In this document: piece by piece, positions 20,106 to 60,000 of the stretch
Layout of the letters: each line of letters starts with the position of its first letter
How positions within the stretch are numbered: position 1 is the stretch's first letter
Assembly (NCBI GenBank): GCA_964187785.1
Contig: OZ076409.1
Location: forward strand, 9,922,001 to 9,982,000
Direction of reading: 5' to 3'
From: Amphiscolops sp. MND2022
Lineage: Eukaryota
DNA: 60,000 bases
Notes under the pieces: model-generated
Told to the model about the DNA's origin: nothing
The model's database searches: none
The model's input: the letters and a program-made list of their open reading frames with translations, nothing else
Position numbers and translations under genes: made by a program

Positions 20106-20121
20106 TGGAGAACACATTTTA

Positions 20122-31949: not shown

Positions 31950-32298
31950 TAATTTTCGTATTTTCTTGTTGTAACAGCTCGTGAGCTACTCACTTCGATC
32001 TCCTGTGCAATTTCGAAAAAACTTGATTTTTCCTTTCCACCACTTGCATTTTTTAAAGGCTGTCTAAGTGTTGGTTTCGAAGAAAAAGCGTAATGCGCAC
32101 TACTGATAGCAATTACAGACTGGATCAGGCCGGCGAGCACTTCTTAAGAAGCGGAATCCTCCTCTGACGGGACATTTCTTACCCGAAGGAGGCAAAATGG
32201 ACTCATGGCCATGGGCGCCTGTCCCGGGCAAATACCCATGCCATGTGTTCCTCCTGCTCTTATGGTTACGGCGACAATGGTGAGAGCTTGTCGTTACA
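31733..32298 (+). repeat. Gypsy 3' LTR, missing the first ~167 bp present in the 5' LTR
   Basis: Matches the 5' LTR from agaccccaaccgaacg to tcgttaca; no purine-rich PPT upstream. Confidence 0.88.
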
Positions 32299-33147: not shown

Positions 33148-36100
33148 TGTTCGGTTATTCCCCCATCACCCATTTATTGAATGAATGTATAGAACTAATT
33201 TATGTATCTTGAATACTAATGTAACTAATTTATATTCAATACCATACTTTCTATTGTAAAGCACTTATTTGATTTATATCGAACACAACGCTAAGAACGT
33301 CTTCGCCATCAAGTTGTCTCCGCCCTAAGACCTAATACTGCAGCTCTGTAAGCTTCTTCCAGTTTTTCTTGAAATACTCCATTCAAAGAAAATAACCATC
33401 TCAACCGTACCTAAAATCAGGTATTTTAACTGCGGCAACCATTGATTTCCCTTCTTTCCTTCCCCTTTTTTCTACAACCTTTCTGCACTAACCATTTCTT
33501 TGGTTCAATATTTCCATATAGATACAAAATCAACTCTTCTGTACTAATCACAAAAAGTGATTCGACTCTTTGTCGGTCCAATAAAAAACCTTCCACTGTA
33601 CTAATCACAAAAAAGTGGTTCGACCCCGTAGTCGGTACGTCCTTTTCTTGTGTACTAATCACATCAAAGTGATTCAGCTACGTGCTGGTACACATTTTCT
33701 GTACTAATTATATCAAAGTGATTCAGCTTTGAGCTGATGCAACATTTCTGTACTAAACAAGTTGGTTCGAGTTTCGTCGGTACATTTTGTGCAAATCACT
33801 TGTTTCGACATTTTGGCAGTACACCTTTTTCTGTACTAACCAAAAACTCCTTTTTGATTCAACCTTTCTGTTGGTACAACTCAATTTTTTTAAATTTTTT
33901 TTTGCCTTCTTTAAATAATTCTGCTTGTTTTTAATTGACTTTATTGTATCTTTTTCGTCTGCTTGCAATCGTTTTTCTCGTCGTCGACAAATTTATGATT
34001 GATTTCCCAATAATTTTTTTCACCTAATGCTCAAAGTTTTTAACTAAAACTCTTGCAACAATGTTTCTTTTTGTCTCCTACATTTTTGCTGTCCTTGTTC
34101 TTCCGATGCTTCTTGTTGAAAAAATATTCATCACTGCTTTCAACTGAGTTGTTCCTATTCACCTAAACTCTTCCCCTTCTCCCCATTCTAAAGTTCCTAC
34201 AATTTCCAATACTCCATCGTTTTACCTTTAACCTCTCCTGATTTGACCACTTCTGCATCCGATATTTTACCTATCTCTTTTCAAATGTTTATGTTTCTCT
34301 TTCGCTTAAGCTCTACCTCTTTCTGGTTCTTCCACAACTCATTCTCATTGCTACCATATTTGTATATAAATGAATATTTAATATTCTCATCTCGTACCAT
34401 ATTCAATCAAGTTACCACCACCTCCGTCAAAACCTTTATCTCCATTTTCATCCACTTCCTCCTGAACCACGTATAGATCCTGAAGTTCTCCTAGACCTTT
34501 TCAGGAGTTTTTAGCCCGCATCGCCATTCATGTTGACTGATCACCCTCCTACTTTACTCCCACTTCCTCTTGTTTTTCCAGATTTTCATTCTCGCATTTC
34601 ATGCGACACCAGCCAAATTTTAACTAGTCTCCCCAGAAAACCTATCCACAACTTAACAGTTCGTCTTTGTTTTGAAACCGACCCGGAAGTTTTTTACACT
34701 ATACCACTCATACGTGAACACCACGACTCCTATCTTTATTATATTGACATCATTCTCTAGTAGAAACTACTGATGTACCTCCTTTCAATTCAACTGAAAA
34801 ATTTCGTAATAATAAATACCCACCAAATTTTACATTCCTATGGCTCATGTTTTCAACCCATTTCTCAAAATCGTCTCAGAAAAAAAACAACGTTTTACCT
34901 AAAAATGCTCTCACCCATCTGCTATCAAAGCACTCCTTCAAAAGGAATCTTTTTTCGATCTTCCCAATATTGAACAACTTTGCTCTATTGAAAACAACCC
35001 CCATCACTGGTTTTCCACTGATCGCCTCTAAACTCCACATTTCTAATACCAATTTGTTTCAAAATCTTACTCAAAACGCACGAACTAAAGAACAAATAAG
35101 TCGAATGTAGTCTCTTTTTCTGCGGAAGTTTTTAACCCTAATTCCATTCATTTGGGATTCTAAATTCCAAGACGCTTGCGGTAACTTCACCTCTCAATTG
35201 TTTGAAGATGAACTCCTCTTTTTTATTGCTACCTCTGAAAAAAAATCCTTGTTTCTATGATCTCCATGATTTTCTTGTCACTTATTTTGACTAACTCACA
35301 TAACAATCTTAGTTTCAACAAAAGTCCTGATATTCCTTCTGCTGTTAGACCATTTGCAAAATATACTCCTCAAACAGTTTCTTTAGATACCACTTCTGAT
35401 ATTTCTCTCGAAACCATTCCCTCTACTTCTAATATTTCTCTCCAAACCATCCCTTCTGCCTCTAACGTTTTGGTCCAAACTCACAATATTGGTTATCCTC
35501 CTCCAAATCTTGATCCACCTCCAGCGCCTTCTTTAACCAACCGCATAACAACTCAATCCTCAACCTCTCACTCGCCATACCGATAAAACACTTCTTCTAA
35601 TTCTCCCCACCACCTAATATCATTACTGCTCAACCATCAACTTCTCAAATGCATCCAAATCTTCCTCCATTCCCTCTTTCTTTTCCTCATGTAATCAATA
35701 CTCAACCTCAAGCTCTCGCTCTTCAAACACACTTACCCACTTCTCATTCTTATCACCCTAAACCTTCATCATCATTGCCTATCACTCAAAACCCTTCTTC
35801 AACACTTCAAACTTCTTCTTTCCCTGCTCCTAACTTTTATGATCCTTACGCTTCACTTCATCCCAGTTTTCAAAAATACACTTCCTACTCTCTTCAACCA
35901 CCTTCGCTTCCTCCTAACCCCTATCACCACCTCATGCTACCTACCCTTTTAATCCACATTCTTCTCAATCTCCTCAACCTGTTTTCTCAATGACCCCTTC
36001 TGTTCCATTTGCTACTCTCTCTGACCCTATTAAACTTTTTGATGTCTTGGATCAAACGTATCCTCCCAAAAAGTTTTTAGATCACCTCAGTGCAAGTTGC

Positions 36101-37210
36101 GCGTGTAATATTTCAACTTGGACCTCAACCTCTTGATATACAATCATATATAACCTGGCACTCAAGTCGACTGTCTCTCATTTAATGTACCCTTACTGGA
36201 ACTGCCTCTAATTGGTATGATCGAGGCCCTCAAAAAAGATGACGAGAATGTTAAACACCTTGCTTTAAAAGCTGAAACTCTCGTTAAACAAAGTTGGTAC
36301 AATGAATAACCAACCACAATAAACCTCATATTTAATGAAAGTTATACTCTTGGTCTTCCAAAAAACTAAACACCTTGCCAATAAACGTCAAGTCAAACAT
36401 TTTTCTAGTTTACTTTAACCTTCAATTCCTTTCCACTCTCTTGTTAATATGGTTGACTCTGAAGATATCACACGTTAAAAACTTAAAATACAAGAATTTT
36501 CTGTCGAAATTAACACTCTCCCAGACACTTTTAGCAAAAATGCCACTGTGACAGATAACTCCATTGAACCTCCACAAATACAAGTTGTAGATCCTAAAAA
36601 ATCAAACTAAATCTCAATTTAAAAAATCTTGCTCTTTTTGCCATAAAAAGAATCATTCGGTCTTCACTTGATATCGTAGACTCAATATGCTTAGAGAATC
36701 TGAAACCCAATCTAAATCACCTACTCATCTACCTTTTACAAACATTTCGAAACACCATTCAATAAATATAACAACCAAAGTCCTCGTTATTGTAGTAGAA
36801 GTAATATTAACCACAATCGCAAACTCTCGTTCAAACTCTCGCTCAAAGTATTCTCATAACCACTCCTCTCATAACCATCCTCCATATTATAATCGTAATC
36901 GATCTCGTTATGATCAATATTATAGAAAATCTCCTTCCCCAAAATATTTTGTATCTCACTCATACTACAATTCAACATCTTCCCGTAGCTCAAAAAGTTT
37001 TATTCTGATTATCGCGAACGCTCCGCGAGTTATAATAACTACTCTTTCCGACGCAAAAATTACCATATCGCTCTCCTTCAAACCACGTTTTGATCACTAC
37101 TGAAGTCGATCTCGCTCTAGTTCACAAAATTATCTTAATCACCAATACAAACCCGCAGTTAATTTCACTCAACAACCCCCTCACTTATTCATCAATCTGC
37201 TATCACATAA
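33148..37210 (+). mobile_element. Decayed 5' half of a pyrimidine-rich LTR retroelement (short putative LTR, leader, gag remnants)
   Basis: Putative 138-bp LTR tgttcg...cgaaca (33148-33285); gag-like LSDPIKLFD..YPPKKFL, LTGTASNWYDR (~36000-36225); Ser/Arg-rich RSNSRSK tail; same C/T-rich sense strand as the 52.5-60 kb element. Confidence 0.65.
33480..33845 (+). repeat. Cluster of ~7 short tgtactaa(t/c) repeats in the element leader
   Basis: tgtactaatcaca-like motifs spaced ~50-80 bp apart. Confidence 0.7.
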
Positions 37211-38348
37211 GATATCTCAGACACGGAGACACCAGTATTCCCAAGGAAGAGAGCCTCTGCCTTCGACAGCAACATTGTATCGCAAATTGATGAAGGACGT
37301 TACAATACATATGCCGCAATGGACTAGCAAGATGTTGCTAGTTCGATTAACAGCCAATAAAAGCGCGTTCTTTTTTCTGATACGCGTTACGAGTTTTGCT
37401 CGGTACACTGTGTGATTTGGCGTTACGCGTAGTGATCAAACTACTTTACAGTCTCTACAAATACGTACATTGACTGGTTTCCACTTCACACACGAAGACG
37501 GAAGTTGATTATTTTACACATCCTTCTGGTACATATTTTGAATCGAATTAACTTTTAGAGTGAAAAACAATCAAAGTGTGTAAGTTAGTGATAAATTTGA
37601 CTGTTTTCCACTCTGAAACATTCGTCATTTTCTTTCAAACTTGGTACAGATTTTGACTGGAATCCACTTTGGCAAAATGTGTAAGTTAATGATTTTATTA
37701 GGATATATGATTATCGCATTAAATAGCACAAAACAAGTCTACTTGTCTCAATTCTACACCCGAGGAAAAACATGATTCGAGGAGAAACGACTGTTATACA
37801 AAACCTTTTTCTATTAGGAGTTATCAGCAATTAATGATTTGATTATATCTATTTTGAGTTGCGGGAGTAGTAATGGTGTAACAAAAATTGACTAATTTAC
37901 GTGGTAGATATTTCTAAGTACTCGGAAAGTGAATTTTAGGCAAAGATTGACTAATTTACGCTTTATACACGATACGGAAATGCGCCAGATATAGGTTGAA
38001 ATTTTTGACTGGTTTCCACTTTTCTCTAATTACGCTCAATGACCACAATCCGCGACTTCTGATTACACTGTGCATCAAATTTCACGATGAAGACATTGCA
38101 CTGCTTGACTAGAATACGGTTCGCTTCGCTCTCGTTTTTTCGGAAAATGCACTCTACACTTGATGATATATTCCACTTTTGCGGCATATGTATCGTAATG
38201 GAGAAGCCGCTAGAGGACATATGCGGCACAGCTCCATTGAATAACCAAGCAGTATTCTCGAGCGTTCGCGCTCTTTAGGACTTGGACTGTGCTGAAACAA
38301 GCATTCTAAACTTTGATGCCACAAAGCTGTTGTCATTCACCATATGTG

Positions 38349-40824
38349 TTAACAAAGCAGGCGAAGAGCTAGTGGCTTCAGCTGTGTCATGACGAGCTCC
38401 GATTGCTGAATTGGGCCTTTTTCTAAGTCCAGACCACAAAAATAGTCGATGAATCGCATCACAGAAGCTGTTGACCTCTGAAGCCTGTCCAAGTTTGAGA
38501 AACGGTCAACGTCAATCACCGGTCGATGACTTTTGGGTTGCACATGAAAAATGCCAGCCGCACGCTTGCTTCGCTCTGGAGGTGCATCAGTTGGAAGAAT
38601 CGGTTGTTTAGGCCATAGTGTTTCATCATGCGCTAGCCATTCGGGACTTTTCAACCACAGGTTGAAATCCAGAAGGTCTGTCGCGGTTTTCCCTCGTGGG
38701 TTCTGTTCTGAAGGAACATGCTTCCATTGTGAAGGGGCAACCTGTTCTTGAATTAGAGACACCCGATTAGCAACAAAACAACCCCAGGTTCCTCGGTGAT
38801 TCGATAACCAAGATAACACTAATGTGGAATCCGTCCAGGCAATGACACGAGAAAAGTTGACGCTGAGCTTAGATAGGGCTAAGGTAGTTGACTGCACCAA
38901 CTTTGCAGCTAGAACTGCACCGGAGAGCTCCAGGCGAGGTAGGCTGAGAGTCTTGATGGGAACCACCCGTGACTTGGCAGTAAGTAGACTGACAAAGTAG
39001 GAGTTGTCTGTGGATGAAACACGAGAGTAGATAAACGCACTGAATGCCGTCTGAGAGACATCGCAGAACACATGCAGCTCCACTGTAGAGTGTGCAGTGA
39101 ATGAGAAAAACAAACATCTGGGTAAAGAAACGCTTCAGATGGCGTGAAGATCCTTTGGAGCTGAGAGCCAAGTTTTGAGGATTGCTGCGGGAACCTCGTC
39201 CTCCCATTCCACTCCAGTTATCCAAGTCCGTTGCACCAAGACCTTGAAAGTGATTACAAGAGGAGAAAGTCATCCCAGTGGATCATATAGCTTAGCAATG
39301 TCCGAAAGCATTTGACGTTTAGTCTTGATTGATTCGGGATCGACGTCGTTCACACATCCTGCAGAGGAAGTCATCGAACCCCCAGACCTTTCGTTTGGTA
39401 GTTGCCGTCATGAAATTTGTGCGCCTTGAGTGCTTCCTGGAGGTCAAGAGGTAGATGCTGGATCGCTGCCGGAATATTGGAAGACCATTTGCGAAAGCAG
39501 AAGCCAGCAGATTATAGGGTTTTTTGAAGAGCGTCCTGAAGTTGGATTGCGTCTTCGAGTGAGGAGGTGACAGAAATCATGTCATCTACCTCGAAGTCAC
39601 GCAGGATCACTGGGCTTGCTAGCGGATGATGATGATCATGGGCAGGAGATAGAAGAGCCTTGACTACTTGGTGAGCAGAAGGTTGAATGCCGAACGTGAC
39701 GCGGGTCATGACCTCAATTGGTTCACCAGGCTGATCGCGCCATAGAAGTCGATGGTAGTCCCTGCTGCTTCGCTTCAAACACACTTGACGGTACATCCTT
39801 TCCACATCAGCGCAGAGAGCTATTGTGTGAAAACGAAACCTAGGCAAAATATCAGTTAAATTGTCTTGAAGTGTATGACTAGTCAGAAGTGAGGCTTTGA
39901 GGGACCAGCCAGACGAAGCCCTTTCGGAGCCGTCGAAGACTATGCGAAGCTTCTGAGTTGAACTATCCTTCATCGCATTGTGATGGGGAAGGTAGAAAAC
40001 ATGATGTGGTGGTTTGTCCAGATCCTCAAATGGGACTCGTTCCATGTGACCAGCATCCTTGTATCCATTGATGTAGTCAGTGTAGTCTTGCTTGAGACCA
40101 GTAGACTAGAGTCGTCTGGCCAGTGCCAGAAAGCGTCGCTTCGCCTGATTGAAGCTTTCACGAATTGGAGGTGCATCTGAGTTGATGCGCCCATCAGCTG
40201 TCCTATACGTCGTCCGAGTGAAGAAGTCCTCACAACGCCGCTCTTCAGGGGTGAATTGGTTGGACCCAGTACCAGGGACTTCCTCGATTTCCCAGAAGCG
40301 AGTCAGAAGCTGATCGACGGAGGAGAAATCACTTGTTGAATGTAGCGCGATGTGAAGTGATTGCTCAGAGCGAGAGTCAGAAGTTGTAGGTGGGTGGCCT
40401 GATTGAACCAATTTGGGGTTGAGTGTACCGCAGAGAACCGAACCGCATATGGTTTCCTAGGCTGAAACTTGTTAGAAAGAACAATTGATTCTTATAGATC
40501 AATACCAATGAGGAGATCGTTTGGACCAGGTGTGTGGAACATCGGATCGACCATTTGCAAGCCATCTAATTGAGTGAGTTCAGCAGAACTGATGGGCTGG
40601 AAAGGGAGATCATAGGTGATCGTTTTGAGAACCAGAGCAGTTGTACTAAGTAGTTGCTCGTTTTAGGGGCAGTAGAGGTCCAGGGTGACCACGGCTGAGG
40701 GACGAGGCATGCGCGTGCCCGCTATCCCGGTGTAGGTCACAGCTGTCTGCTTTGTGAGCAGACCGAGCCGCTGGGCTGCCTGGGTGGTCATGACGTTCAC
40801 CGTTGAGCAAGAATCAAGAAGTGC
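38349..40824 (-). mobile_element. BEL/Pao pol remnant (protease, RT, RNase H), truncated before integrase
   Basis: ALLDSCS; FYLPHH, KLRIVFDGS, ADVERMYRQV, RVTFG, EVDDMIS; LHVFCD, SLPRLELSGA, WTDST, WKHVPSEQNP. Confidence 0.92.
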
Positions 40825-42062
40825 TTCTTTCTTGAAAGCAACCAATATGTCTCGGAGCGTTGTTTCCGTATTGGTTTTGAATGTCTGCCAAAATTTAATT
40901 GCGTCGTCTCTCAAGAGAAAATAGTTCAGCTTCTTGTCTTCAGTGAGTTTGTGAGAGTGTGGCCTGAGGTGATTTAGTAGCAGATGTTGAAATTCGTTGT
41001 AATTGTCTCTATTTCTTTTGAACAGCGGTACTTGTGTTCGGAGAAATTTCGGTTGGGTGATCGTGTTGCTCATCGTGTTGCAAAGGTGATGGATTTCGAT
41101 CATCACGTCAGTCAGTAGTGGGGCGTCGACATCGCTTCTGGGAAATTCATTTGGTGGAGTTGTTCGTGAGCCTGATGGTTGTTGGTTCTAGGCTCCTGTC
41201 ACCAAGTCAGAATGGGTGTCAGTATCATTTGACAACATATTTACTCCGTTCCCTTCTCTCAGATTAGAGGATTTACTATCGGTAAGGGTTAAATACAAAA
41301 GTGGTCAGTTCATTAATTTGTCGGTTCATCTCTGAAAACCTCCGTTCTATAGCATCGTTTTTCATGTTTTATTTCTACTCAATATGTCGCTGTTGTCGAA
41401 TTCGAACATTTGTGCCCTTGATAAGACTTCTGGCACACTTTGGTCATTTTCGCTATCACTCATTGCTTCAGGTACTATTAGAATATTTCTATTAGCTTGA
41501 GATCTGATTACTACCCTATGAACGAAACGATAGAGTATTGAAGGTTTTTTTGTCATACAGCAGATGAAAATGGAATAATCGCGAAGTTTAATATTGACAA
41601 TTGTCAAGGTATGATTGCAACTGTCAGGTATGGTTTACTAAATCGTACTGGTGGTCAATCTATCACCAACGCTTTTCTGGTTCCAGCGTCTTAGCACCTG
41701 TTGATACTGAACAATGGTATCGCTTATTTTAATTGGTGTTAATTAGCGCACTTAGCTTCAAAGTGAAAGGTATATGACCGTGAGTTACAGTCATCAAGGC
41801 AATCGATGAACGCAATTTTTAGCACAAGACGGAGTGAATGACTGTGTGTCTCAGTCGCTAAGGCAATCGATCATTGTAATTATCGCCATTATGTGTGAAA
41901 CATTTCTATACTTTCTGGTCGTCAAGGCAACCTCATGTTCAAAATGTTCCTTCTGATAAGCATCATGACTGTAAATACCGGCAATGAAACGAAAATGTGC
42001 AGGTTGATATCTAGGAACTACATGGTAATACGATGAAGGTTGAACAGATGTTTATGATTACT
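40825..42062 (-). mobile_element. Gypsy LTR + PBS + gag 5' fragment, running up to the assembly gap
   Basis: PBS-like tggtgacagg at ~41204-41195 (minus); gag TQVPLFKRNRDNYNEFQHLLLNHLRPH...LNYFLLRDDAIKFWQT. Confidence 0.72.
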
Positions 42063-44129: not shown

Positions 44130-46039
44130 TGTGTTGACCGTGATTCGGGAGTAAATCACTTGGTCCAACTAGTCTATACCTATATTCCGTGTTTTCCGCA
44201 TCCTCGTCGTCGGGACCATGACGCACGTTGTTAGACGGTCTCTCTGTCAGTGTATCGATTTTAGAAGTCAGGTTCTCTATCATCTTCAGAATTTCGCGCT
44301 GTCCGACTTCCGCGTCTTTGATTCTTTTACTCACAGATTTTTCTATCTTTTCAGATAATTCCGTAAAATCCTTATCAGACAAACTAGCAGCGTTTTCAGA
44401 TCTCATGCTAGAAGATTCAGGTTCGTCTAAAGAGTTCACAGGAGAATCCCTTCTGGCTTTTCTTTTGGAGCTACGTTCTGGCATCTTACTTAGGCTTGAT
44501 AATTCTTGATTTTCTTTTTAAGGGAATTAGAGCGAGTTCTCAAGTGACAAAGTGTGACGTTTCAAGATTTTTAATTATCGTTGAACGAAAGACAATTGTT
44601 TCGCAAAATAACAAAATTCAACTAAAAATGGCTTCTAGCTCGCATTGTATTTATACTTTTCATCCCGGAAATCAGGGAAAAGACACGAACATACTTCACA
44701 TTTTGTTCAGTCCGGCGTCCGTCCGAGGCAAGGAAACAGGAAGTTCAGTTCCGCTTTGTCGAACTCAGGCTTTCAGCTTGTTCATGCTTTCCGAAGAAAG
44801 GCACGCGTCCACTTCCGGCCTGAGTTGCGACTCCGCTTCCCTTCGCCTCCAATTTCCCGCCTCTTCAGGAGGCCGAACTGAAAAAAATTATCAGCGGCAC
44901 GCGCAATGAGTCACTGAATAAGATTGATTAACTGCACAAATTTGAGAAAAAATGATGACAACCAATTTTCCTTTACAAATATTTCCCTAAATTAAATAAA
45001 TCAGCAACAATTTGAATGAAATTTAACACAGATTACACATTAGGCTTCAAATGAAAGAGTAGAATTGCTTCTACAGTATTTGTAGCTCTGATTTTGGTTA
45101 ATAACACAAAGCCTGGTCCCAGGCCATAGTCCGGGACGGACAAACATGTTCAGTGGGTAGAGCAACTATTAATTATAAACAGCATCAGATATATTGTTCG
45201 GGAAGGTATTTAATGCAATTGAACGACAACAGATTCAGGGAACAGGATATACATGTTATTAACACTTGGTTTAATATTCGGTACTAAATCTTTGGTTCAG
45301 GTCGCGGTTCAGGCCTGTTTATAGATTAATCAACATTTACATGTAAAAGAACGTTATATGTAATATTTTAAACTACAATATAGTTTAAGATCATAGATAA
45401 TAATCTCTAGATTCATTTTGAGACAAAGTTACATGGTAGCATCATCATCTTTCACTTTCGTGATTGATTTATTGTAATTAATTCTCAGGCCGCATCCCAG
45501 GCCGTGGTACGTGATGTTCTATTAAGTTAGCACAGTAATCTCAATTGTTGGTATATTTGCATTCGTATTGTTAATAAATCACTGCACTAGACATTAGTTC
45601 ATTTACATGTATTCACTATAGCGCGCGCTTGCATATTAATCCGCTGAGGTTACAATTCTCAGGCTGCCTGCCAGGCCGCCGCTTCAGTGCGAGTATTTGA
45701 GGCCGGCTGCCAGGCCTCAGTTCCGCCTTCGATTTCTCAGTTCATTCACTGAGCGGTGCTATTCGATTATTATTATTACATAGTATTGTATTATTATTAA
45801 CTGCACAAATAGCTCCGTTATTCCGTAAGTACGTATTTATATAAGTGTACAATATTATGATAATAATACTAGTATGCATATATTTATTAATTTAACTTCA
45901 AATTTATATTGTTTAGCTCCTTTGTTTCTGATTGTTTGTCCGCTGTCTATTTCCTCTTCTTTTGTTCTTTTTCCAATTTATTCTTCGAAGACTGGGTTGT
46001 GTTTGTTGCAATACTCGCAGCTCAGTCGGGGCTGTGACA
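44130..46039 (-). mobile_element. Solo LTR (1910 bp, Gypsy type) with 5-bp TSD cctgc
   Basis: TG...CA termini on both strands; cctgc at 44125-44129 and 46040-46044; gag-like N-terminal ORF MPERSSKRKARR...QREILKMIENL inside. Confidence 0.88.
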
Positions 46040-46178
46040 CCTGCTCAATTGTTTGTGTACAATAATTACCAGCGAAAACGAACTTTACATTCATCTCCAA
46101 CGATTGTTCTACCTCAATTGTTACAATAAAAACTCAAAATATTGGAAAACCAGATATTTTCTTCAGAAGACGGATATT

Positions 46179-47096
46179 ATGATTGGGATTTTCATCGTTT
46201 GTGTATCATTCACACTTCTCGCAGAAACAGCGGCTGGAAATTCCAATACGTTTCGTTCCACCGCATTCGAAGACCCAATAAATGAGAAACGTTTGGACGC
46301 AGGAAAAGTTATTGGAACACGGCAAGAATCATCGCGTACAAAATGCGCACTTGCTTGTTCTAAAAATGATGACTGCCTTTCTTTCGCTTTCTGCGGGGAG
46401 AACTCCTGCGAATTGTACAACGAAGACATTTTTTCAACGGAGTATGGAGAGAACATTATAGAAGAAGATTTAAGCTGCAAATATTTTGGGATGAAGAAGA
46501 AATCTAAGCCAATATGCCAGCAAGATGGTTTGTTTGCAGACATACAGAGTGACGATGGAAACAGTGAGTTTTGTCCAATAAGTGGGAAGCGAGTTGATAC
46601 AGAGTGGGGCCAATGGGGAGGGGAAGAAACAGTATACAACCCTCCTGATTGGAAGTTAGTAAACAGGAGAGAGATTGTTATTGAAGCAGCCCATGGGGGA
46701 CTTCTTGACTTGGGAGATTCTGAGCGAGCTTTAGAATGGATCAAGTTTGTAGATCAAGAGATGACATGGGAGGATGCAAAAGCAAATTGCGAAACTTTGG
46801 GTGGAACTTTGTTCTCCAGAGTAGATGGAACTGAGGAACAGTTAGATTTCTTGCTACAGAAAATGAATGGAAAGAGACACTGGTTGGGGATCTACACTGA
46901 GGATCACGAGGTCTGGAAATCAGTGACAGGTGACGTCGTTGAACCAACTTCACTGTATTGGAAAAGTGGTCAACCAAATAATTTTTCAGGTGATCAAAAG
47001 TATGTTGCTAACCGTACATGGAAAACCGAATTGATCATTGGTTTGGCAGATGACGAAAGTTCGAGTGTCAAGGGATCAGTGTGCGACATGCTGTGA
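46179..47096 (+). CDS. Secreted PAN/Apple + C-type lectin domain protein (paralog 2), uninterrupted ORF, 305 aa
   Basis: Signal peptide MIGIFIVCVSFTLLA; same PAN and CTLD motifs as paralog 1; WKSGQPNN loop. Confidence 0.87.
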   Translation: MIGIFIVCVSFTLLAETAAGNSNTFRSTAFEDPINEKRLDAGKVIGTRQESSRTKCALACSKNDDCLSFAFCGENSCELYNEDIFSTEYGENIIEEDLSCKYFGMKKKSKPICQQDGLFADIQSDDGNSEFCPISGKRVDTEWGQWGGEETVYNPPDWKLVNRREIVIEAAHGGLLDLGDSERALEWIKFVDQEMTWEDAKANCETLGGTLFSRVDGTEEQLDFLLQKMNGKRHWLGIYTEDHEVWKSVTGDVVEPTSLYWKSGQPNNFSGDQKYVANRTWKTELIIGLADDESSSVKGSVCDML

Positions 47097-47374: not shown

Positions 47375-47960
47375 TTTTTAGTCGGCGTTTTCGAAGAAAT
47401 TCCACGACTCTTACAGTGGCTAATTTTTTTCGTCAGTTCAACGCGATCCGTCCACTTTTTTGTTCATTTGTTCAACTTCTTCGACAAATAAATTTCAGGC
47501 TTTCAGAAGCAGGAGAGCGTGGGTTCGAGTCTCGCACTAAATCACAACTTTTTTATTGCTTTCGAATGTAGAGGGGAGACCAAACTTTGGGTGTTTTCAG
47601 GACTTTGTGACTTTTTTCCGAAAAAATTTTGAATTCTATCAAAAGGTACCCCTTAAATTGTTTGAAGTTGTCGGTTTATAAAAAAGTTTATTGAGCCTAA
47701 AGGGTCTGATTTAGGGTTTTCGGCATTGTGCAACTTTTTTATCAAATACTTTTTTGAAACATTTAATTTTTTTGAAAAGTCAATTAGTTTTTTTGATGCT
47801 TCCAGTGCCAGAAAAAAGCTGTCTTCGAGTTTCGGGGAAATCTCTTTCAGGATTTTTTGGCACTGTGTGATAAATAAAAAAAATCTTAATTGCTTGAGTT
47901 TCTCTTTGAATAGTATCGAGCCTTAGAAATGACGCCGACTTGGGTCGTTCCCGGCTTGTT
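47375..47960 (-). repeat. Dispersed non-autonomous element with asymmetric subterminal inverted repeats (Helentron/HINE-like)
   Basis: agtcggcg (47380-47387) / cgccgact (47933-47940) inverted pair, 3' hairpin potential, T-rich flanks, other copies in the window. Confidence 0.55.
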
Positions 47961-49990
47961 ATATGATCTAAGATGATATTTTTTTCACCGCCATTGCAAT
48001 GCGAATTCAATTCGTATACAGCACCTAATCACAAAACAATTCCTCGAAACTGATGCTTGAAAAGCCTCACTGCTCTGAAAATCACAGGCAAAACATATAC
48101 TCTGTGTTGTACAAAACCAAAGATAATTGTTTCAATAAATAAAATATTCATTTATTGTCAATATATTTTTTCAATTGTCAATATCATATATGACATAAGG
48201 TTGATAAAGTTCTCACGCTACTGAGAAGAAAACACTGAATCGAAGGATTTACATTACGTTTTAAGTTGTTTTGAAATTTTGTTGACACTTATTTGCACTT
48301 TTAAGACTTCTAATGTTTTATGCTATCAGTTGTTTGATTCATTCAAAAATTTGAATGAATCAAATGCCATTACAATTCCACTTATGTATGACGTAATGTC
48401 TCCTTTCGCTTCGTATAGACAATTATGTGTATTGAATGAAGTCAACTATCAACATAAAGTGTGTCGTCGCCTTTTTTACGTGGACCTACTTTTAGTCGTG
48501 TTGTAACCCAAAATGATTCTAATATGATGCTAATTTTAGAAACAAAACACCCATGTTTTTGAGTGTCATGCCCTGTGGAGTATATATACACAGACTAAAC
48601 TCAAAACGACACCCTCTAATGATAACCTTTGTATCATTCTTTTGGTATTTAGCTGTGACTATTGTTTTCACGTTTCAATAAAAAACCTGTGAACTCCCGA
48701 CGTTTTTCTTATGTTGGAAGCCCAATTTCTCAACGACAATTTTGTTCTTTAAATGCCCTCAACTACAAAGCAGAAAGCTAGAGAACAAGATCACGTCAAT
48801 CAGACTCGTTGACAGATTTGAAAGATATGAACATACAACGGTCTAGAAAAAGACTCACAAGCGGACCTAATATCCAATGGGCGCCGAGAAAGCAATAGCT
48901 GAAACATTAGAAAATAGATCTATGATGAACTTTAAATTTATTGCTTGAGTTTCTCTTTGAATAATATCGAGCCTTAGAAATGACGCCGACTTGGGTCGTT
49001 CCCGGCTTGTTATATGATCTAAGATGATATTTTTTTCACCGCCATTGCAATCCGAATTCAATTCGTATACAGCACCTAATCACAAAACAATTCCTCGAAA
49101 CTGATGCTTGAAAAGCCTCACTGCTCTGAAAATCACAGGCAAAACATATACTCTGTGTTGTACAAAACCAAAGATAATTGTTTCAATAAATAAAATATTC
49201 ATTTATTGTCAATATATTTTTTCAATTGTCAATATCATATATCACATGAGGTTGTTAAAGTTCTCCCGCTACAGAGAAGAAAACACTGAATCGAAGGATT
49301 TACATTACGTTTTAGGTTGTTTTGAATTTTTGTTGACACTTATTTGCACTTTTAAGACTTCTAATGTTTTATGCTATCAGTTGTTTGATTCATTCAAAAA
49401 TTTGAATGAATCAAATGCCATTACAATTCCACTTATGTATGACGTAATGTCTCCTTTCGCTTCGTATAGACAATTATGTGTATTGAATGAAGTCAACTAT
49501 CAACATAAAGTGTGTCGTCGCCTTTTTTACGTGGACCTACTTTTAGTCGTGTTGTAACCCAAAATGATTCTAATATGATGCTAATTTTAGAAACAAAACA
49601 CCCATGTTTTTGAGTGTCATGCCCTGTGGAGTATATATACACAGACTAAACTCAAAACGACACCCTCTAATGATAACCTTTGTATCATTCTTTTGGTATT
49701 TAGCTGTGACTATTGTTTTCACGTTTCAATAAATAACCTGTGAACTCCCGACGTTTTTCTTATGTTGGAAGCCCAATTTCTCAACGACAATTTTGTTCTT
49801 TAAAGGCCCTCAACTACAAAGCAGAAAGCTAGAGAACAAGATCACGTCAATCAGACTCGTTGACAGATTTGAAAGATATGAACATACAACGGTCTAGAAA
49901 AAGACTCACAAGCGGACCTAATATCCAATGGGCGCCGAGAAAGCAATAGCTGAAACATTAGAAAATAGATCTATGATGAACTTTAAATTT
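47889..49990 (+). repeat. Head-to-tail tandem duplication, 2 x 1051 bp, near-identical
   Basis: 47889-48939 matches 48940-49990 with few substitutions. Confidence 0.95.
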
Positions 49991-51701: not shown

Positions 51702-52451
51702 CAGGGACCGTAGTTTTATGCGCAACATTTTGCCAAATTATAGGCTCAGTTATGCGCTAAATTATGGCAGAATATGCGGCAAAGTATGCAATTTTAGAGG
51801 CTCTTGCTCACTTTCTGGAAAACATGCGCCCGTTCGCAATAATGTAGTTTGGTTCTTTTTAACAAAAGAAACTGGCATTTATGTACAGAAACATCAACTC
51901 TTTAATTGTCTTTAGGCCTAAATTATGTCTGTCGTCGGTCAAAAGTTTATGGAAGTAACTAAACACTCTTTCTACTGCGGCAGAAGAGCAGACTGCAAAG
52001 CCATAAGTTTCAGCAATTTTTGCCAAGATGGGCAGCTTGTTAGACATTGAAACCCAAAAGTCACGAACTTGCTGTAGCTCTTCTTGTATGGACAAATCTG
52101 CACTGTAGTTTAATTGGAATTCTCTGACGAGAATACGGTAACCAAATTTTTCTGCTGTAGGTACTGTGTCGAAGTCAGGAACATGCTTGAGGTCCGCATT
52201 GTCGGGAAAACTGAGGCTCTTGACAGGATGATTCAATATCTTTGAGAAAATTTCGAGCAGGGTGGGAACCATGATTTTCCGAGAAGTATTTCTTGATTTT
52301 TTTGTAGGCATTTGTTGACGCCCGATTAACCTGCTGGGCTAACTTCTGCATGTGGTCGCTGGAAAAAGTCTGTCATAATTTCTGTGATCTGGGTTACAGA
52401 ATCTGTGGAAAGGGACATCTGGGCAGTAGGACGAATCCCGTTATAATGAGC
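51702..52451 (-). mobile_element. hAT DNA transposon 3' remnant (transposase dimerization domain plus terminus), cut by an LTR element
   Basis: FW....LPILAKIA......SSAAVERVFS (hATC motif); caggg terminus at 51702 with tatgc subterminal repeats. Confidence 0.8.
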
Positions 52452-52632
52452 TGTTAAAGACTTGTTGGATGTGTGACTTTATTTCATTTAGGGAATACAT
52501 AAGAAGTTCTTACTAAGTCTTAACAGAATACCGTCTAGCTAGCTATACTTATTTCAATGAACTGAGTAGGACTATTCAGACTGAGATCTCAGAATTCTTT
52601 CTCTTCGAGGATGAGAGTACTGGTTGATTACA
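52452..52632 (-). repeat. Putative 3' LTR (181 bp)
   Basis: Minus strand tgtaatc...tttaaca with aataaa ~25 nt before the end; abuts the interrupted hAT coding sequence; partner LTR not in window. Confidence 0.55.
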
Positions 52633-53958
52633 ACATTCGAGTTACTCTGATTATACAGATTTAGTTAGTACATCAATCAATAATGAGATTAAATAGACTT
52701 CAAATAATTATAGGATGAAGTACAAGAGATTACATTTATAATGAAATATCAGCATCTCGATAATGAGGTATTAACTTCTGAGTAGAGTGACATCTGTCAT
52801 GCTATTAAGTCATGAAGTTTATTTATATTTTTACAAATTTAAGATTCTTGATGTCATGCATCACGACATCACAATCGACCGGGTTTTTGAAAAATTAAAA
52901 TAAATCCATATGTTCTGAAGGTTTGGGTTTTTTACTAAAGGTGTTCAATGGTTCATGTTATATTCGAGTACCATACATAAGGAGTGAGAACAACCTAAGA
53001 CGGTTTGAACTTCTTAGTAATTTGACGGTTCACATTGGTGCAACGTTTTTCAGTCAAGAAATTTTGATTCACAGTGTTGTTCAAGTTATTGTTTGACAAC
53101 CTTGTGGTAAGCTCCATCGGCTTTGATCAAAAAAATACATGAGTTCTCCAAATGAGTAGTCGCATGAAAACTTTTTGGATTGAAGAACATTTGTAAAAGT
53201 TGTCAATGAGGTGTGAACAAACATTGGCGGGTTGTGAACAAAGTGTGAAGAAGTCTAGAAGTGGCAAAGGTTGAGTTCATTTTTCACTCAAAAGAAAGAT
53301 TGGATGATTGAAAAAGGATTCAAACTTCAAATTTTTGTTCAAATTCCTAGAGTAAAACATTTGTTCTATAAGAACAGGTCTTGTACTATGAAAAACGAAG
53401 AAGGACAAGAATATATTCAGTAAAATAATATGTAATATATGGTGAATTTTCGTATTTTGCACAAAGTGTTGGTATTATATGATTATATAGCAACAACGAA
53501 TATAGGGTTTCGATGAATTAAGCACTAAATGAAGTATAGTGGGCTAATTTTGACTAAAATATTAAGAATTATAATAGAGTATACATTGGTTATAATTAGT
53601 TAATAGATTATTAACAGGGAATATTTTGAATATAAGTATTTTTGAGAGTATAGATTGAGATTATACAGTGATGAAATAAGATTATAGATTAAGAATATAC
53701 AGTGATGAAGTTTTGTAAAAGTTTGAAGTTTGAAGTAAAGTGAAGTGGTGTAGTCATCTGACGAAGAAGCAGAGAGGACCACGAAGTGACGATGTCTGGA
53801 GAGACAGCGAAGAAGAGTAGCAGCGACGCAAGAGAAGAAGTGGCGATGTGGAGAGGTTGAGAAGCAGGAAGTGAGAGATGCATGTTGACAATGATGACAT
53901 CTATGAAGCCATGAAAGAAAGCAACAGCATCAGAGTGATGAGAAGTGAAGAGAATAGG

Positions 53959-54435
53959 TTAGTTGGAATTATCAGAAGTGTAATTTTTTGGCCAAAATGT
54001 GTGTTTTGACGGAGGGTGGACTTGGTGGGTCTCAAGATTGTAGCGCTGCAATTGTTGTGTGTACCCAAAGTCTAAGAGTACAGCATTGAAGGCGTCAATA
54101 GCGTCATCCAATGCTACTTGAAAACAGTTGTCCTTCGTAGTAAACGCGGAGTTGAGGACGAACACAGTGTCAGAAGTAATTTCACAAATGGCGATTTTTG
54201 GTCCATTAACATGAACTCGATAATACTGTTCAAAGGTGATCTGCTTTTTCTTGATCTGGCAGACATTGTAGAGAACCTTAAGAAAGGAACGACGAGTAGG
54301 GAGAGTGACGTTTCCTTTATTTATTTCCAGAGACATTTTGTAGGCCATAGTATGAAAAATGGCAGCTTTTAGGCTATGGACTTTAGATTCAGTTGAAGTA
54401 ACGAGTTGTTTTATTTCAGACTTTTGCGGAGCCAT
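53959..54435 (-). CDS. Accessory ORF of the env element, 158 aa, unknown function
   Basis: ATG-initiated intact ORF (MAPQKSEIKQ...) with globular-looking composition. Confidence 0.65.
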   Translation of the reverse strand: MAPQKSEIKQLVTSTESKVHSLKAAIFHTMAYKMSLEINKGNVTLPTRRSFLKVLYNVCQIKKKQITFEQYYRVHVNGPKIAICEITSDTVFVLNSAFTTKDNCFQVALDDAIDAFNAVLLDFGYTQQLQRYNLETHQVHPPSKHTFWPKNYTSDNSN

Positions 54436-55059
54436 TGGATGAAGAATGAAAAGTGAAGTCTTGATAGAGTTTTCTGGAATTGGCAGAGACTGAAAGGAGT
54501 CCAGAAGGAGGAAGAAGAATAGAAGTTTCTAAAACAAAAGGAGTCTGAGATTTGAAGACCAAATGCCAAACGTTTTTGTTACATAACTTGGTGCTATAAT
54601 ATGGATGTTGTTTTTGTATTATAGTTGAAAAGAGATTCTGAAAAAGTGCTAGAAGTGAACAAGAGTACAATAGATGAATGAGTTTTTGTGCTACAGATGT
54701 TGTCAAAATTTTATGAAAAATAAATTAGGGATGCTACCTGTAGTTTGGAATGAAAATGTTCAAGAGAGAAAGGTGTCCAAAAATGTCCAATATCGGAGGA
54801 AAACTAAAGAAATTTGTATTACCTGAGAGACGATTTAGTGGATATTAAGAGTATTAAAAAGAGTATTCATAGATTCAAGCGCAGATTGGATTGCTTGAGA
54901 GGATTGTGTTATGCGCTGAGAATCGAGATCTAGAGTCTTAAGGAGTTGTGAAGTCCTGTTATGGCAATGTATGAGATGATTAAGAGTGGTGATTGGAGAA
55001 TCGGACGGATTGCGTATATGGATCTAGCTTTTGGGTGAGATCCTTAAGAGTACGATTAT

Positions 55060-56259
55060 TTAATATAGTCGCAAGTTTTTCACTGGTAGTTTGTTTGATG
55101 GGAGATTTCGTAGGAGTTTTATGATCATTATAAGAACGTTGTTCATTTTGAACTGCGAGTTGTTGTTCAGCTTGAACCATTGAACCATGTATGAGATGAC
55201 TTTCGCGGCTATGAACAAAAGTTCGTTGTAAGAATAGGATTGTTTATAGAGAGCGGTATAATGTGAGGTATCTTTGTCGTCTAATGGTGTAGAAACAAGA
55301 TGTTTGATGACTGTCAAAGGTTTGACAATCTGAGTGGGAGTGTTGCAGGGCAACAGGAAGTCATCAAAATGAATAAGGTACTCTTGAGGTACAATGAGAG
55401 GACGAGAAGTATCATTATGAGGAAGCAAACAAAAATATTGTTTGATTGGGTCAAAGTTTCGAAGGTAGCCGGTTATTTTGGAGCGATCAATAGTGTACAA
55501 ATTTGTCATGGTGAAAGGAGAAGTATATTTATAGTTTGCAAATATGTAGTTTTTAGGTTTTGAGTGTTGAAGAAAGCGGGTATACGTTAAATGATGAGTG
55601 GCTTTTTGTGCTGTAGATAGAAAAGATGGATCGTTTTCATCCGTTTTTAGATCATAGATCGATGGGCGAAGGAAATTGAATTGGAGAGAAAGTATTTTGA
55701 TTCCATTTTCAAGCCAATATTGATAGGGTGCCATAATTTTAGAAGCAATGGACGTGAAGAAATCTTGATTTTTATCATACAATTTGCAGGTGTAGTCAGT
55801 AGGATGCATATATAGAGAAGTCAGTTGTGATTTGAAGGAGAAGCGGTTTGTAGAAAGTATTGGTACAAGATAGTCATCACGGGTCGTAGAGAGTTGTAGT
55901 TTTGTAGGTATTATTGGTGGATAGATTGGTGATGAAAGAAATGCAGGATCTTTCATGATTTCATATTTCCTTTTTGTTGGTGGAGGAGTATCAGGAGATT
56001 GATCATGATCCGAAGGTGTTTTACTTTTTAAAGGAAGATTTTGGTGTTCCATTTGATCAGGATTGGGATCATCAGATGTTTCTTCAGTATCAAGAAAGAA
56101 AACAGGAGAGCCATTTGAAAGAGGTTTAGTAATAAGATCAGCAGTGTGCACTTCAAGTTGATTTTGAAGATCAATTTGTTCTTGAGTTACTTGAGAAGTC
56201 ATGTTGTGAAACTCTAGTTGTGCTTGGGTCATATTAGGAAGCGATTTTTGGAAGTACAA
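55060..56259 (-). CDS. Accessory ORF of the env element, ~390 aa, probably continuing after a frameshift (54980-55180 frame); unknown function
   Basis: Long open frame directly after env; acidic/Pro-rich N-terminus with PPPTKRK (NLS-like), then aromatic-rich globular region. Confidence 0.6.
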   Translation of the reverse strand: MYFQKSLPNMTQAQLEFHNMTSQVTQEQIDLQNQLEVHTADLITKPLSNGSPVFFLDTEETSDDPNPDQMEHQNLPLKSKTPSDHDQSPDTPPPTKRKYEIMKDPAFLSSPIYPPIIPTKLQLSTTRDDYLVPILSTNRFSFKSQLTSLYMHPTDYTCKLYDKNQDFFTSIASKIMAPYQYWLENGIKILSLQFNFLRPSIYDLKTDENDPSFLSTAQKATHHLTYTRFLQHSKPKNYIFANYKYTSPFTMTNLYTIDRSKITGYLRNFDPIKQYFCLLPHNDTSRPLIVPQEYLIHFDDFLLPCNTPTQIVKPLTVIKHLVSTPLDDKDTSHYTALYKQSYSYNELLFIAAKVISYMVQWFKLNNNSQFKMNNVLIMIIKLLRNLPSNKLPVKNLRLY

Positions 56260-56475
56260 TATGGAAACAAAACACTAACGTGTGGCTTTATCAGAAGTTT
56301 TTGGAGTAGAAATGTTGACACGAATGTTTAGGTTAATTTCGATTTTCGATTCAATTGTTGAAATATGTAGAGTTTTTCAGAGAAATAGATATTTAGAAGA
56401 TTGATTGAAAGTTTGCAAAGAATTTTTTGTGAGGAGAGAGTCGAGAGCGATGAAGTTAGATCGAAGAGTGGCCAG

Positions 56476-59214
56476 CTATGTTGGAGGAGTGAAAAAGTCA
56501 GAGTGATCAGTGTTAAAAGATGGCGGAGGAAAAAAGTAATTAGTTTTTGAATATATGAGGACAGGAGTGTCCATCTCACAACTGACAGGTGATGTAGTGT
56601 AATCATTAGGATTTGTGGTGACAGGAGAATAGTGTGGTAAGGATGATTGAATATTAGTTTTGGAGTGAACATTATGAGGTGTTTGATTGGAATATTGCTT
56701 TCGTTTTGGAAGGAATTTAAAATGAGTCACTTTGGAAATCCGATTGGGTCGTTTTGTATAAAAAGGTGGTAGTGAAGTAATACCAGTTGAATTTGAAGAA
56801 ATACCAGTTGTATCATTAGGATTATAGGAAGATTCATCTAATGGGTTGTCAGTAATGTTTGACATTTGATGTGAACTTTTAGAGGATGATTCAGAACGAA
56901 CATTTTTTAAGTCATGTATCATGTCAGCTGTAAGAATATTGAGAAAACCATGTGCAATAGATTTGAGAATTGTAATATTTTGTTTAAGGTTGTACTTTAT
57001 GGAAATGGTTTTGTATAATTCAACAATGAGAGTTAACATTGTTTGTATAAAAAGATATGTGGAAAAGTAAATTCCACATTGTGTCAAAATGTAACATGGG
57101 TATCCAAATAAAGCAATAAAGGCATCAGAGAACCATGTAGGAGTAAAAAGGGGAGTAAGGGTAATTATTCGATCATGAAGTCCAATTCGAAGTGTAATAT
57201 ATGGGTTACCATGTGGAGAATCTGCATCATAATCAGGTGTATTAGAGGAAATAAAGGAATAACTAAGAGCTTTTCCTAAAAGTTGAAAAGTAGTATCAGA
57301 GTGTTTAGAAAATAAGATTCTGTTCCAAAATTGATTTAGTTCAGCATTGGAGTATTTACTAGCATCTTGAGCTGTAAAAGTATTAGGTCGTATTGTAGTT
57401 TTAATTTGGGAAGGAGTAAACATAAGTGGAGGTTTTCGTTTAATAGGTTCAGGGCCAAGAATATAAAAGTCTTGGTCATCAGAATCAGGGTCAAGTTCGA
57501 TAATGTTGTTTGGGTTATTATCACATGTAATAGGAGTAGCATAGTCATATGTTTGTCTTGTAATAGGATCAACGTACATAAGGGTGTCTTTAAAATGAAT
57601 AGGAATTCGATCGAAACAACGATCGGCAATGTATAAAGGAGACAAAAAGGGAAAGTCATATAGCCAAGCAGTAGATCCTTCAACATAGAGAAAGTTACTG
57701 CGATTTCCTGTTAAAAGGAAGCCAGCAAGTTGAGGATTTTGTACTGACATTGTAAGTATTGTAAGGAGTTGGTTTCGTTCTAATTCACATACTGTATGAG
57801 GAGTATTAAGTTCTTGGACAGTCATAGAGCGAAATACATGATTGATGGTGTAATCTATTTTAGTATTTATATGGGCATCATAGTCTATTGTAGCGAAGTT
57901 GTTAGAAACGTTCAATGCAGGAAAGATGTATTTGTTATTAGAGTTGTTTAGTACAATTTTTCCAGAAATATATTCATTGATTATAGAAGTGGGATTTCGT
58001 TGTCCTGCATGCATGTTGAATCCTTCAGTATAAGTAACAAAAAGGTCAGAATATTGAATGGAATATAGAAGTTCAGGTTTTCTGCAAAAGGTATGTGCAT
58101 TAGGAAAGACTTCAAAACGAGAAAGGTTTGGGTGATGTGGAGTTTCAGTATGAGGAGCACGGATATAAGGATAATAAGTACCCTTGATACCATCAAAGGA
58201 GGAAGATTTTTTTGGGGTTGCAGAATGTACAAAGGAATCTGTTTCTATCCAATAACGGTCGTCTATTTTAGTCATGCGTCCAATAAAGTCTTGTAATGTA
58301 AAAATAAGACAAAAGTCGTCACTAAACCATACAAGTGTGAAAGGAGTTTTCGTAGTAGGTTTACAAAAACCATCAGCAAAGTAACATGGGCGAGTATGAC
58401 CATCAATGATCACAACGTTTTGTGTATCATCATATGTAAGTTCGATTTCAGAAATAGCAAGACGCCAACTAACTAAGTTTACTTCAAATTGGTGATGAGC
58501 TGGACAGTTATGATGAGGGTTTCGAAGTGGGTCATATATCCATGTTTTGTCAGCAGGCATATAGGTAAATGTACCTGTATACATTTTGTTGAATTGATAA
58601 ACAGTGAAAGGGGTTTGAAATCGGTTTAATTGTTTTTGAAAGTAGTGGTCTTCTAGAAGTGTAAAAGTTTTGTTATAATTAAGGTTGTTTAATATTTTGT
58701 TATCAGTTCCATTAAGGTGTCTATTAAGATTTTTACATTCAAGAGGATCAAGTGTAATAGGAAGTGGCATTGTATTATGATTTCAAACAGTTCTGTCAAC
58801 ACGTCTAAATTTAACATTACCTTGGAAGCAAACATTTCGTTCTTTTTTAGCATATGCCTCGCATTTTAAAGCGCGAATACGTTTAGCTTTTGCTCTAACG
58901 TAGACTCGGGCTTGGATATTTGCGTGTTGTATGTTGGAAGGAGCTTCAGTACATTGTTTAACATTAAGAAGGGTAAATTGGCGAAGGTTATGTTGTTTTT
59001 CACAATCATAATGAGAGACCATAAGATTTGTTATATTTGGATCATCAGATGGGAGATATTTGTCATCATCAGTTGGGTTAATAGGAATAGAGGATGTAAA
59101 ATAAGAGTTTATGGAAAAGAGGAGGAAGTGAGTTATGAAGAGTATAATGTGTGTATTAAAAGGAAGTTTAATATTTGAGACCAGAGAAAGGATTATAGAA
59201 AACAATTTTGCCAT
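56476..59214 (-). pseudogene. env: Envelope glycoprotein, class III (herpes gB / chuvirus G-like), ~912 codons with one in-frame TGA at 58783-58785
   Basis: Signal peptide; VSHYDC..LLNVKQC; CELERNQLLTILTMSVQNPQLAGFLL; CFDRIPI..YVDPITR..PITC; N-glycosylation sequons; TM ..YILTQCGIYFSTYLFIQTMLTLIV; ORFs 58783-59214 and 56476-58770 are in the same frame (DRTV*NHNTMP). Confidence 0.8.
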
Positions 59215-60000
59215 AAGCTAAATCGTGTAATTCAGGATCACGGTTGAAATCGACTAATATTATTTCAAATGGAGCAGGAGTTGTTTTGTGTTCAATCTTT
59301 GCGACGTGAAATATAGGATGAGGATTAAGACCTTGAAATTTAACTTTGACTTCAAATTTCAATTTTAGATTAGGAGTTTGAAGGCGTTTAAGTTCAGTTT
59401 CTTTTCGTTTATTTGAAAGAGAGTTATTTGTGGTAATGAATCGTTCTGCAAGAATTGGAAAACGAGGATCGTTTTGAGGATCGTATATAGTGATTCCGTC
59501 TACACGTATAGGGTAATCTGCAAAATTAGGAGTGGGTGGTCTTGATTGGTCAAAAGTATAATATTCAGGAATTCGTTTGTGAGGAGCAACAGGTGTAGGT
59601 ACTAAGACTTCAGAGAAAAGATTGCCAGATAAATATGCAGTTTGGACGTCAGAAGAGAGTAGGGAAGCTGTGTCTAGTCCAGAAGTAAGATAGGATTGTG
59701 GAACAAAGTCTGAAGAGTGTGCTGTATCAGAGGATAGAGGTTGAGCGTGTTGTCTAAGAAGACGTAATGCAGAATTGCTAGAAAGTGCTGAAAAATTAAG
59801 AGTTGATGAATCAGTTGCACTTAGACGTCTATTTGGAAGAGGTCTAAGGTTGTATCTGTGTTGAGGTATAATTTCAGAACCGGAAGTATCTGATTGTGGT
59901 TGATATTCTGAAGCAGAGTCTATCAAGTTAGAAAGAGAAGTAGAAGGATGTCTGAGTGGTTTAGAAGGAGGGTAAATTTGAGATCGACTAGAAGATTCAG
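59168..60000 (-). CDS. C-terminal part of the ORF upstream of env (probably a Pol tail after integrase); overlaps the env start
   Basis: Ser-rich region with HRYNLRP (the RYxLR motif common in retroelement Pol tails); 47-nt overlap with env. Confidence 0.55.
   Translation of the reverse strand, partial: ESSSRSQIYPPSKPLRHPSTSLSNLIDSASEYQPQSDTSGSEIIPQHRYNLRPLPNRRLSATDSSTLNFSALSSNSALRLLRQHAQPLSSDTAHSSDFVPQSYLTSGLDTASLLSSDVQTAYLSGNLFSEVLVPTPVAPHKRIPEYYTFDQSRPPTPNFADYPIRVDGITIYDPQNDPRFPILAERFITTNNSLSNKRKETELKRLQTPNLKLKFEVKVKFQGLNPHPIFHVAKIEHKTTPAPFEIILVDFNRDPELHDLAYGKIVFYNPFSGLKY

Follow-up and report, generated by a model that had tools for sequence, protein, structure and literature searches.

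Two open reading frames (ORFs), here called ORF-A and ORF-B, lie behind the env gene of a long terminal repeat (LTR) retroelement of Amphiscolops sp. MND2022 and are almost certainly real, family-wide accessory genes. The window analysed is a 60,000-nt stretch of contig OZ076409.1 (9,922,001-9,982,000), within which all coordinates are counted. It holds the 3' part of the element, which lies on the minus strand and continues past the window end. On balance, we take the region downstream of env to be a 3' accessory module that is fixed in an LTR retroelement family with env and a high copy number, and we lean towards the gene order pol, env (gB type), ORF-A, ORF-B, long 3' untranslated region (UTR), LTR. 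The element is classed from this 3' part, with reverse transcriptase (RT) and integrase lying outside the window, as retrovirus-like. Read from the window end, its features and the adjoining sequence are as follows.

59168-59998, minus strand: open frame entering from the window end, 276 codons, overlapping the env start by 47 nt
56476-59214, minus strand: env, a class III glycoprotein of the gB/chuvirus type (PF24664), with one in-frame stop at 58783-58785
54835-56232, minus strand: ORF-A, about 465 codons, a soluble orphan protein; this copy is frameshifted near 55180 and again near 55010
55960-55983, minus strand: proline-preceded basic motif PPxKK[RK]YE in ORF-A, resembling a nuclear localization signal (NLS)
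55654-55770, minus strand: ORF-A residues 155-193, weak post-hoc resemblance to Hfq (hhalign score 22.2, probability 9%)
54525-54536, minus strand: conserved non-coding motif, TGTTTTAG followed by AAAC, 3' splice-acceptor-like, its AG ending 93 nt ahead of the ORF-B ATG, no other ATG intervening
53959-54435, minus strand: ORF-B, intact ATG-initiated ORF, 158 aa, a soluble, basic orphan protein with an isoelectric point of about 9
52875-53958, minus strand: apparently non-coding 3' region of about 1.1 kb, containing a third frame (53474-52998)
52452-52874, minus strand: putative 3' LTR, with a candidate start TG at 52874, AATAAA at 52483 and the end ...ACA at 52452
51859-52440, minus strand: flanking hAT transposase remnant outside the element (PF05699, E 3.5e-9)

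ORF-A and ORF-B are conserved in hundreds of copies of the family. Conservation across copies was the test that the original prediction had set for the several accessory ORFs it placed in the approximately 3.8 kb between env and a putative LTR, a distance that candidate LTR starts put at 3.6-3.9 kb. Two of these ORFs have hundreds of homologues and no library match, as expected of the unrecognized accessory proteins it proposed; the third frame is no better than chance would give, and a search with that one frame turned up no relatives. For ORF-A, 440 of 1287 candidates are homologues, with identities of 59-98% among the 120 matches listed, and the clusters, which include many fragments, reach 1036 and 502 members. 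A single ORF-A sequence is present on 11 contigs, and the C-terminus is common to most of the 47 stored relatives of at least 430 aa. The 390-aa ATG call (56232-55060, minus strand), already suspected of being extended by a frameshift, shows two frame changes when aligned with intact relatives of 462-468 aa: the match covers codons 1-351, moves to another frame at 55180-55007 and then returns to the first frame as far as 54838. This leaves the final 39 residues of the call out of frame, and the gene comprises about 465 codons. The predicted 158-aa ORF is indeed intact (54435-53959, minus strand, co-oriented with env and ORF-A), and 613 of 620 candidates are homologues of it. Their commonest length is 150-151 aa among the 120 matches listed, and a profile search returned 225 representatives at 50% identity. 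The 161 near-full-length relatives span 33-100% identity, and an N-terminal MAP is found in 99 of the 125 relatives of 145-161 aa. One ORF-B sequence occurs identically on 45 contigs and another on 23, indicating that intact ORF-B spread recently; a distant subfamily now has one or two copies in each of the 10 clusters checked.

Both the length and the pattern of conservation of these ORFs depart from chance. Markov shuffling of the 3.6-kb region behind env (2000 shuffles) never produced an ORF of 390 aa or longer and gave a second ORF of at least 158 aa in 0.1%. Seven shorter or overlapping ORFs (114, 66, 64, 48, 47, 40 and 34 aa) and one of 25 aa had no exact match in the protein collection. 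When the P0002 subfamily of ORF-A is compared with those of P0019 and P0025, residues 121-320 are 75-90% identical, residues 1-80 only 35-45%, residues 361-400 42-45% and the tail 74-78%. Substitutions common to at least four of 46 ORF-A sequences are more conservative than singletons (mean BLOSUM 0.07 vs -0.54, p 2e-7), a proxy for the ratio of nonsynonymous to synonymous substitution rates (dN/dS) and a pattern that would be expected if replication selects while inserted copies decay. Across the whole ORF-B protein the corresponding values are -0.22 and -0.53 (p 0.009).

ORF-A and ORF-B travel with env. Five of the 481 stored proteins are chimeric gene calls from rearranged copies, joining env to ORF-B (two), ORF-A to ORF-B (two, one of them from a distant subfamily) and ORF-B to env (one). 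Because these calls join env to ORF-B and ORF-A to ORF-B, the region is not a nested insertion, the alternative that the original prediction had named as one that would refute it. With contigs matched by size as the key, 6 of 14 env cluster members are co-placed with an ORF-A or ORF-B relative, including on contigs of 27 and 45 kb, and five contigs below 100 kb carry both ORF-A and ORF-B relatives where a crude length model expects 0.4-1.3. No repeat pair brackets the ORF-A/ORF-B region, and the strand skew is unbroken from env down to about 53300.

The env gene is of the gB/chuvirus-G type. In this copy the in-frame stop divides it into a 144-codon and a 768-codon piece, each matching PF24664, the Monjiviricetes fusion glycoprotein (E 9e-12 and 1e-3). 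An intact relative of 911 aa, P0483, matches the same family above its cut-off (E 3e-22) and is 89.5% identical to the window env over its full length; the env protein cluster has 603 members. Moderately hydrophobic windows of P0483 (Kyte-Doolittle, KD, 1.45-1.65) at residues 15-40 and near residue 718 provide the hydrophobic N- and C-terminal segments of this type of glycoprotein. The frame entering from the window end, for which Pfam gave no match, is probably a low-complexity C-terminal tail of pol. Within it, a T-rich run with AG lies 3 nt before the env ATG (59214-59230, minus strand) and could be an env splice acceptor.

Ty3/gypsy elements with a gB-type env, described as ancient errantiviruses, are widespread in metazoans (Chary & Hayashi, eLife RP108449, PMC13524379). 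The element in the window resembles them, as they are described there, as an LTR-type metazoan element with a gB/chuvirus-like env after pol and many near-identical copies, a comparison in which Ty3/gypsy membership is putative, with the RT outside the window. Bel/Pao elements also bear gB-type env according to the same survey (PMC13524379). In contrast, the ancient errantiviruses are described with three ORFs only, whereas the element here has two more after env, and term searches of the accessible text and seven supplementary files of the survey found no accessory ORFs or genes downstream of env and no mention of the acoel-group names tried (PMC13524379).

The 3' end of the element consists of an apparently non-coding tail and a putative LTR. 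The broken frame predicted near 52900-53460 corresponds to 53474-52998 (159 codons with two stops) and was rejected as a gene, since 47% of 2000 shuffles of the 1.1-kb tail equal it. Read with X at its stops, it had no relatives among 10 candidates (that frame only, lengths 87-279); the other two frames of the same region contain 9 stops in 218 codons and 11 in 191. The most fitting reading of the third frame is 3' UTR. The 626 nt before the putative LTR fold no better than shuffles (z -1.0) and so give no indication of a response-element-like structure. An alternative LTR start follows a purine run at 52606, another candidate polypurine tract. The element probably ends at 52452, 31 nt past AATAAA, where it abuts the hAT remnant, and G+C climbs from about 0.31 to 0.42 across this junction. 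No partner LTR was found within the window.

ORF-A encodes a protein with an acidic N-terminus and a basic motif that we take to be NLS-like from the usual consensus; at least three lysine or arginine residues occupy the motif in 76 of 88 relatives. None of the three ORF-A and three ORF-B proteins measured contains a 19-residue window above KD 1.4, and hence no membrane segment was found. The AlphaFold2 (AF2) model of a natural intact ORF-A relative has a predicted local distance difference test (pLDDT) score of 34.7, with C-terminal helices at low confidence. The ESM Atlas gave no usable match for residues 85-463, and no relationship between ORF-A and ORF-B was detectable. In one ORF-A subfamily (P0025, P0403, P0412 and their kin), at least nine stored proteins have an in-frame start about 18 codons upstream.

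A Hfq/Sm-like fold in ORF-A is a borderline lead. Residues 155-193 align without gaps to the N-terminal half of Hfq, covering its helix and first strands and leaving Sm2 unaligned. Alignments of ORF-A with Hfq score 20-22 at probabilities of 3-9%, with 1 of 200 and 0 of 200 shuffles as high; the top score of 22.2 is reached by none of 200 shuffles and none of 28 real-protein decoys, and the reversed alignment still scores 20.1. Another segment, picked by eye as Sm-like (ORF-A 226-300), was rejected with a profile score at chance. The Sm-candidate fragment found nothing in plasmids, and the LSm family PF01423 matched in 0 of 61 proteobacterial genomes.

ORF-B yields a somewhat better model (pLDDT 63.8, predicted template modelling score, pTM, 0.42). 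Its ESM features resemble those of double-stranded RNA-binding domains (dsRBDs) at 0.83-0.86, under the 0.9 mark. Of the pattern matches that the ORF-B alignment picked up in metagenome contigs, 260 in IMG/VR and 244 in JGI, none was confirmed.

The conserved motif upstream of ORF-B suggests a 3' splice or trans-splice acceptor with a candidate junction at 54529. Among 36 ORF-B relatives with an upstream extension, 21 show traces of it there, vs none of 29 downstream tails, and because these traces occur in three different frames they cannot represent protein conservation. Motif carriers are 36-90% identical in ORF-B, and the traces are compatible with TAG or CAG. Judging from this sequence pattern, ORF-B is probably made from its own spliced message.

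Foamy virus tas/bel2 and deltaretrovirus pX are regulatory ORFs located between env and the 3' LTR. The element resembles such complex retroviruses in having regulatory-type ORFs at this position, and the complex-retrovirus layout of the original prediction holds up in that conserved ORFs lie between env and the putative 3' LTR; that they are non-structural we infer from the absence of membrane segments and family matches. Unlike the element, complex retroviruses are vertebrate Retroviridae with a class I env, and no sequence or family similarity to ORF-A or ORF-B was found. Retroviridae membership, as marked by a class I env and an RT with a tether, does not fit the class III type env seen here, and the RT lies outside the window. 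Troyka LTR retrotransposons, described as lacking env and having CG...CG termini (PMC12440569), are ruled out by the presence of env.

Accessory genes are known from other elements. Foamy-like fish endogenous retroviruses carry accessory ORFs (PMC6431247, PMC2774666), and captured ORFs can sit downstream of env according to a review (PMC6431247), so the position after env is not new by itself. The Drosophila MDG1 group encodes a nuclear sORF1 and a membrane fusogen, sORF2 (PMC11952523), the ORF3s of bdelloid LTR elements are recognisable enzymes (PMC5408684) and plant LTR elements carry aORFs (PMC7264820). The MDG1, bdelloid and plant ORFs are, as described, family-wide accessory ORFs in LTR retrotransposons like those reported here, but they belong to elements without env, or the extra ORF replaces env or sits upstream of gag. 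The closest functional parallel by description is CERV of the Caenorhabditis elegans Ty3/gypsy element Cer1, a 517-aa nuclear protein made from a spliced mRNA and required for genomic RNA export (PMC10309623). ORF-A and CERV, compared by description and not by sequence, are both orphan soluble proteins of about 500 aa with a candidate basic NLS and a helical domain, encoded 3' of pol in an invertebrate element. As described, CERV occupies the env position and shares gag exons, whereas the element here has env, followed by two ORFs. Searches of an open-access library showed no description of a two-gene module behind a gB-type env.

We propose that ORF-A and ORF-B would be translated from subgenomic RNAs, and that splicing or trans-splicing to the conserved AG, 93 nt ahead of the ORF-B start, would produce the ORF-B message. 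The element would require unspliced genomic RNA together with spliced env and accessory messages, and because a regulator of its own has been shown to serve such a need in the case of CERV, an export or splicing regulator is favoured. ORF-A could be a nuclear, oligomeric regulator of element RNA that controls the balance of export and splicing in the manner of CERV or Rev, or acts by transactivation, and ORF-B might be a small basic RNA-binding helper, possibly directed against host small-RNA silencing; both assignments are guesses. The silencing suppressors, transactivators or RNA-export factors of the original prediction likewise stay at the level of proposals, since neither protein could be matched to a family or fold. 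By its size, solubility, basic motif and helical tail, ORF-A is a plausible nuclear RNA or transcription regulator, though we would give this slightly less than an even chance, while an RNA-binding or anti-silencing function of ORF-B is doubtful. Quite improbable, taken as a whole, is the most specific version, an independently evolved complex-retrovirus module in which a Rev/CERV-like ORF-A would be built on a highly diverged Sm/Hfq-like RNA-binding domain and ORF-B would be a dsRBD-like silencing suppressor made from its own spliced message.

A number of observations weigh against a regulatory accessory module. Basic tripeptides and helical tails are widespread in proteins. ORF-A had no match in Pfam (46 members, E 10), NCBIfam, PHROGs or PDB sequence profiles, and ORF-B had none in Pfam (74 members, E 0.5), NCBIfam, PHROGs or PDB sequences. 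Among 48161 chains none matched the ORF-B model at Z of at least 5, and BFVD gave no match at E 0.001. Aligned with hhalign to 51 RNase III dsRBDs, a bacterial set used without a positive control for distant dsRBDs, ORF-B scored 9.4, whereas shuffles averaged 10.1; the AF2 model lacks the dsRBD sheet and leaves residues 81-97 unresolved. In the ORF-B core alone the excess of conservative substitutions falls short of significance (p 0.065), in a test that is a proxy for dN/dS and in which frameshifted stretches may lower singleton scores. ORF-A and ORF-B relatives share 28 contigs overall, not far above the crude expectation of 7-24. The acceptor-like motif was derived from translations with a pattern written post hoc, the 36 sequences are kin, the AG is missing from one motif carrier, and the sequence upstream of ORF-A yielded no comparable motif.

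The main competing explanation, which we consider unlikely, is that ORF-A and ORF-B encode matrix- or nucleoprotein-like proteins for structure or assembly. They would have been acquired from a negative-strand RNA virus along with the glycoprotein and would serve budding or capsid-envelope contact instead of regulation. The assignment of env to the Monjiviricetes fusion family and the position of both ORFs directly after env and co-oriented with it are consistent with such a block, as are the basic character of ORF-B and the lengths of about 465 and 150 aa, which we presume to suit N-like and M-like proteins. Yet no nucleoprotein or matrix family emerged from searches with 46 members of ORF-A (E 10) and 74 of ORF-B (E 0.5) or from PDB profiles, nor did the weak ORF-B model match BFVD at E 0.001 or better. 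An ancient origin of gB-type env within Ty3/gypsy elements has been argued for (PMC13524379), which removes the need for a co-captured block, and the NLS-like motif of ORF-A suits a nuclear role better.

It is also improbable that ORF-A and ORF-B are host-derived or selfish passengers of indirect benefit, through anti-silencing or manipulation of cell state, that are expressed from an internal promoter, the motif before ORF-B then being a promoter or start-site element. The env of Oikopleura Tor3b/4b is described as driven by an internal promoter (PMC4402516), captured enzymatic ORF3s occur in rotifer LTR elements (PMC5408684), and the lack of an acceptor-like motif before ORF-A would agree with such an arrangement. 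On the other hand, the motif looks like a stretch of pyrimidines with a YAG, and no host homologue was found, the listed relatives with a source all being unnamed ENA proteins. It is very improbable, and largely refuted, that a distinct nested mobile element makes up the region or that the region is neutral DNA which multiplied along with the family: although an LTR pair with a target-site duplication was not seen in the window, frames, starts and ends are kept at 59% (ORF-A) and 33-45% (ORF-B) identity with uneven conservation, chimeric calls connect the genes, bracketing repeats are absent and no transposase or RT family matched.

Several other features of the window lie outside the element. 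On the plus strand, 19539-32158 encodes approximately 800 residues after an integrase core that have no Pfam match; the last 300 look globular and presumably resemble a macro domain, a likeness judged by eye. The stretch 33500-37300 (plus strand) is a decayed C-rich, gag-like sequence with repeated TGTACTAA motifs and proline/serine-rich and Arg-Ser-rich frames. It has the same strand skew as the studied element, no BLAST match to 52000-60000 and two frames without an informative Pfam match, and could be the 5' part of a relative of that element. Two single-frame genes of host type, with PAN and C-type lectin domains, lie at 9326-10258 and 46038-47096 (plus strand) and are about 85% alike over 300 nt. 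A near-perfect tandem duplication with a spacing of 1051 nt occupies 47886-49557 and includes a 32-nt palindrome per copy. Terminal repeats within 11283-18572 are 82-94% alike and about 6.3 kb apart; from their translations, we take 11283-18572 and 38349-41187 to be decayed Bel/Pao-like elements.

Whereas the invertebrate env-bearing LTR elements of the published survey are described with gag, pol and env (PMC13524379), regulatory genes after env mark the complex retroviruses of vertebrates. A family whose clusters run from hundreds to a thousand members, and which keeps two orphan genes at this position along with a conserved acceptor-like signal, would be a candidate for a convergent complex-retrovirus design and adds two new protein families. 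Should ORF-B prove to suppress silencing, this would help to explain the thousands of copies of the family. The system thus bears on how a retroelement may balance genomic against spliced RNA, or evade small-RNA silencing.

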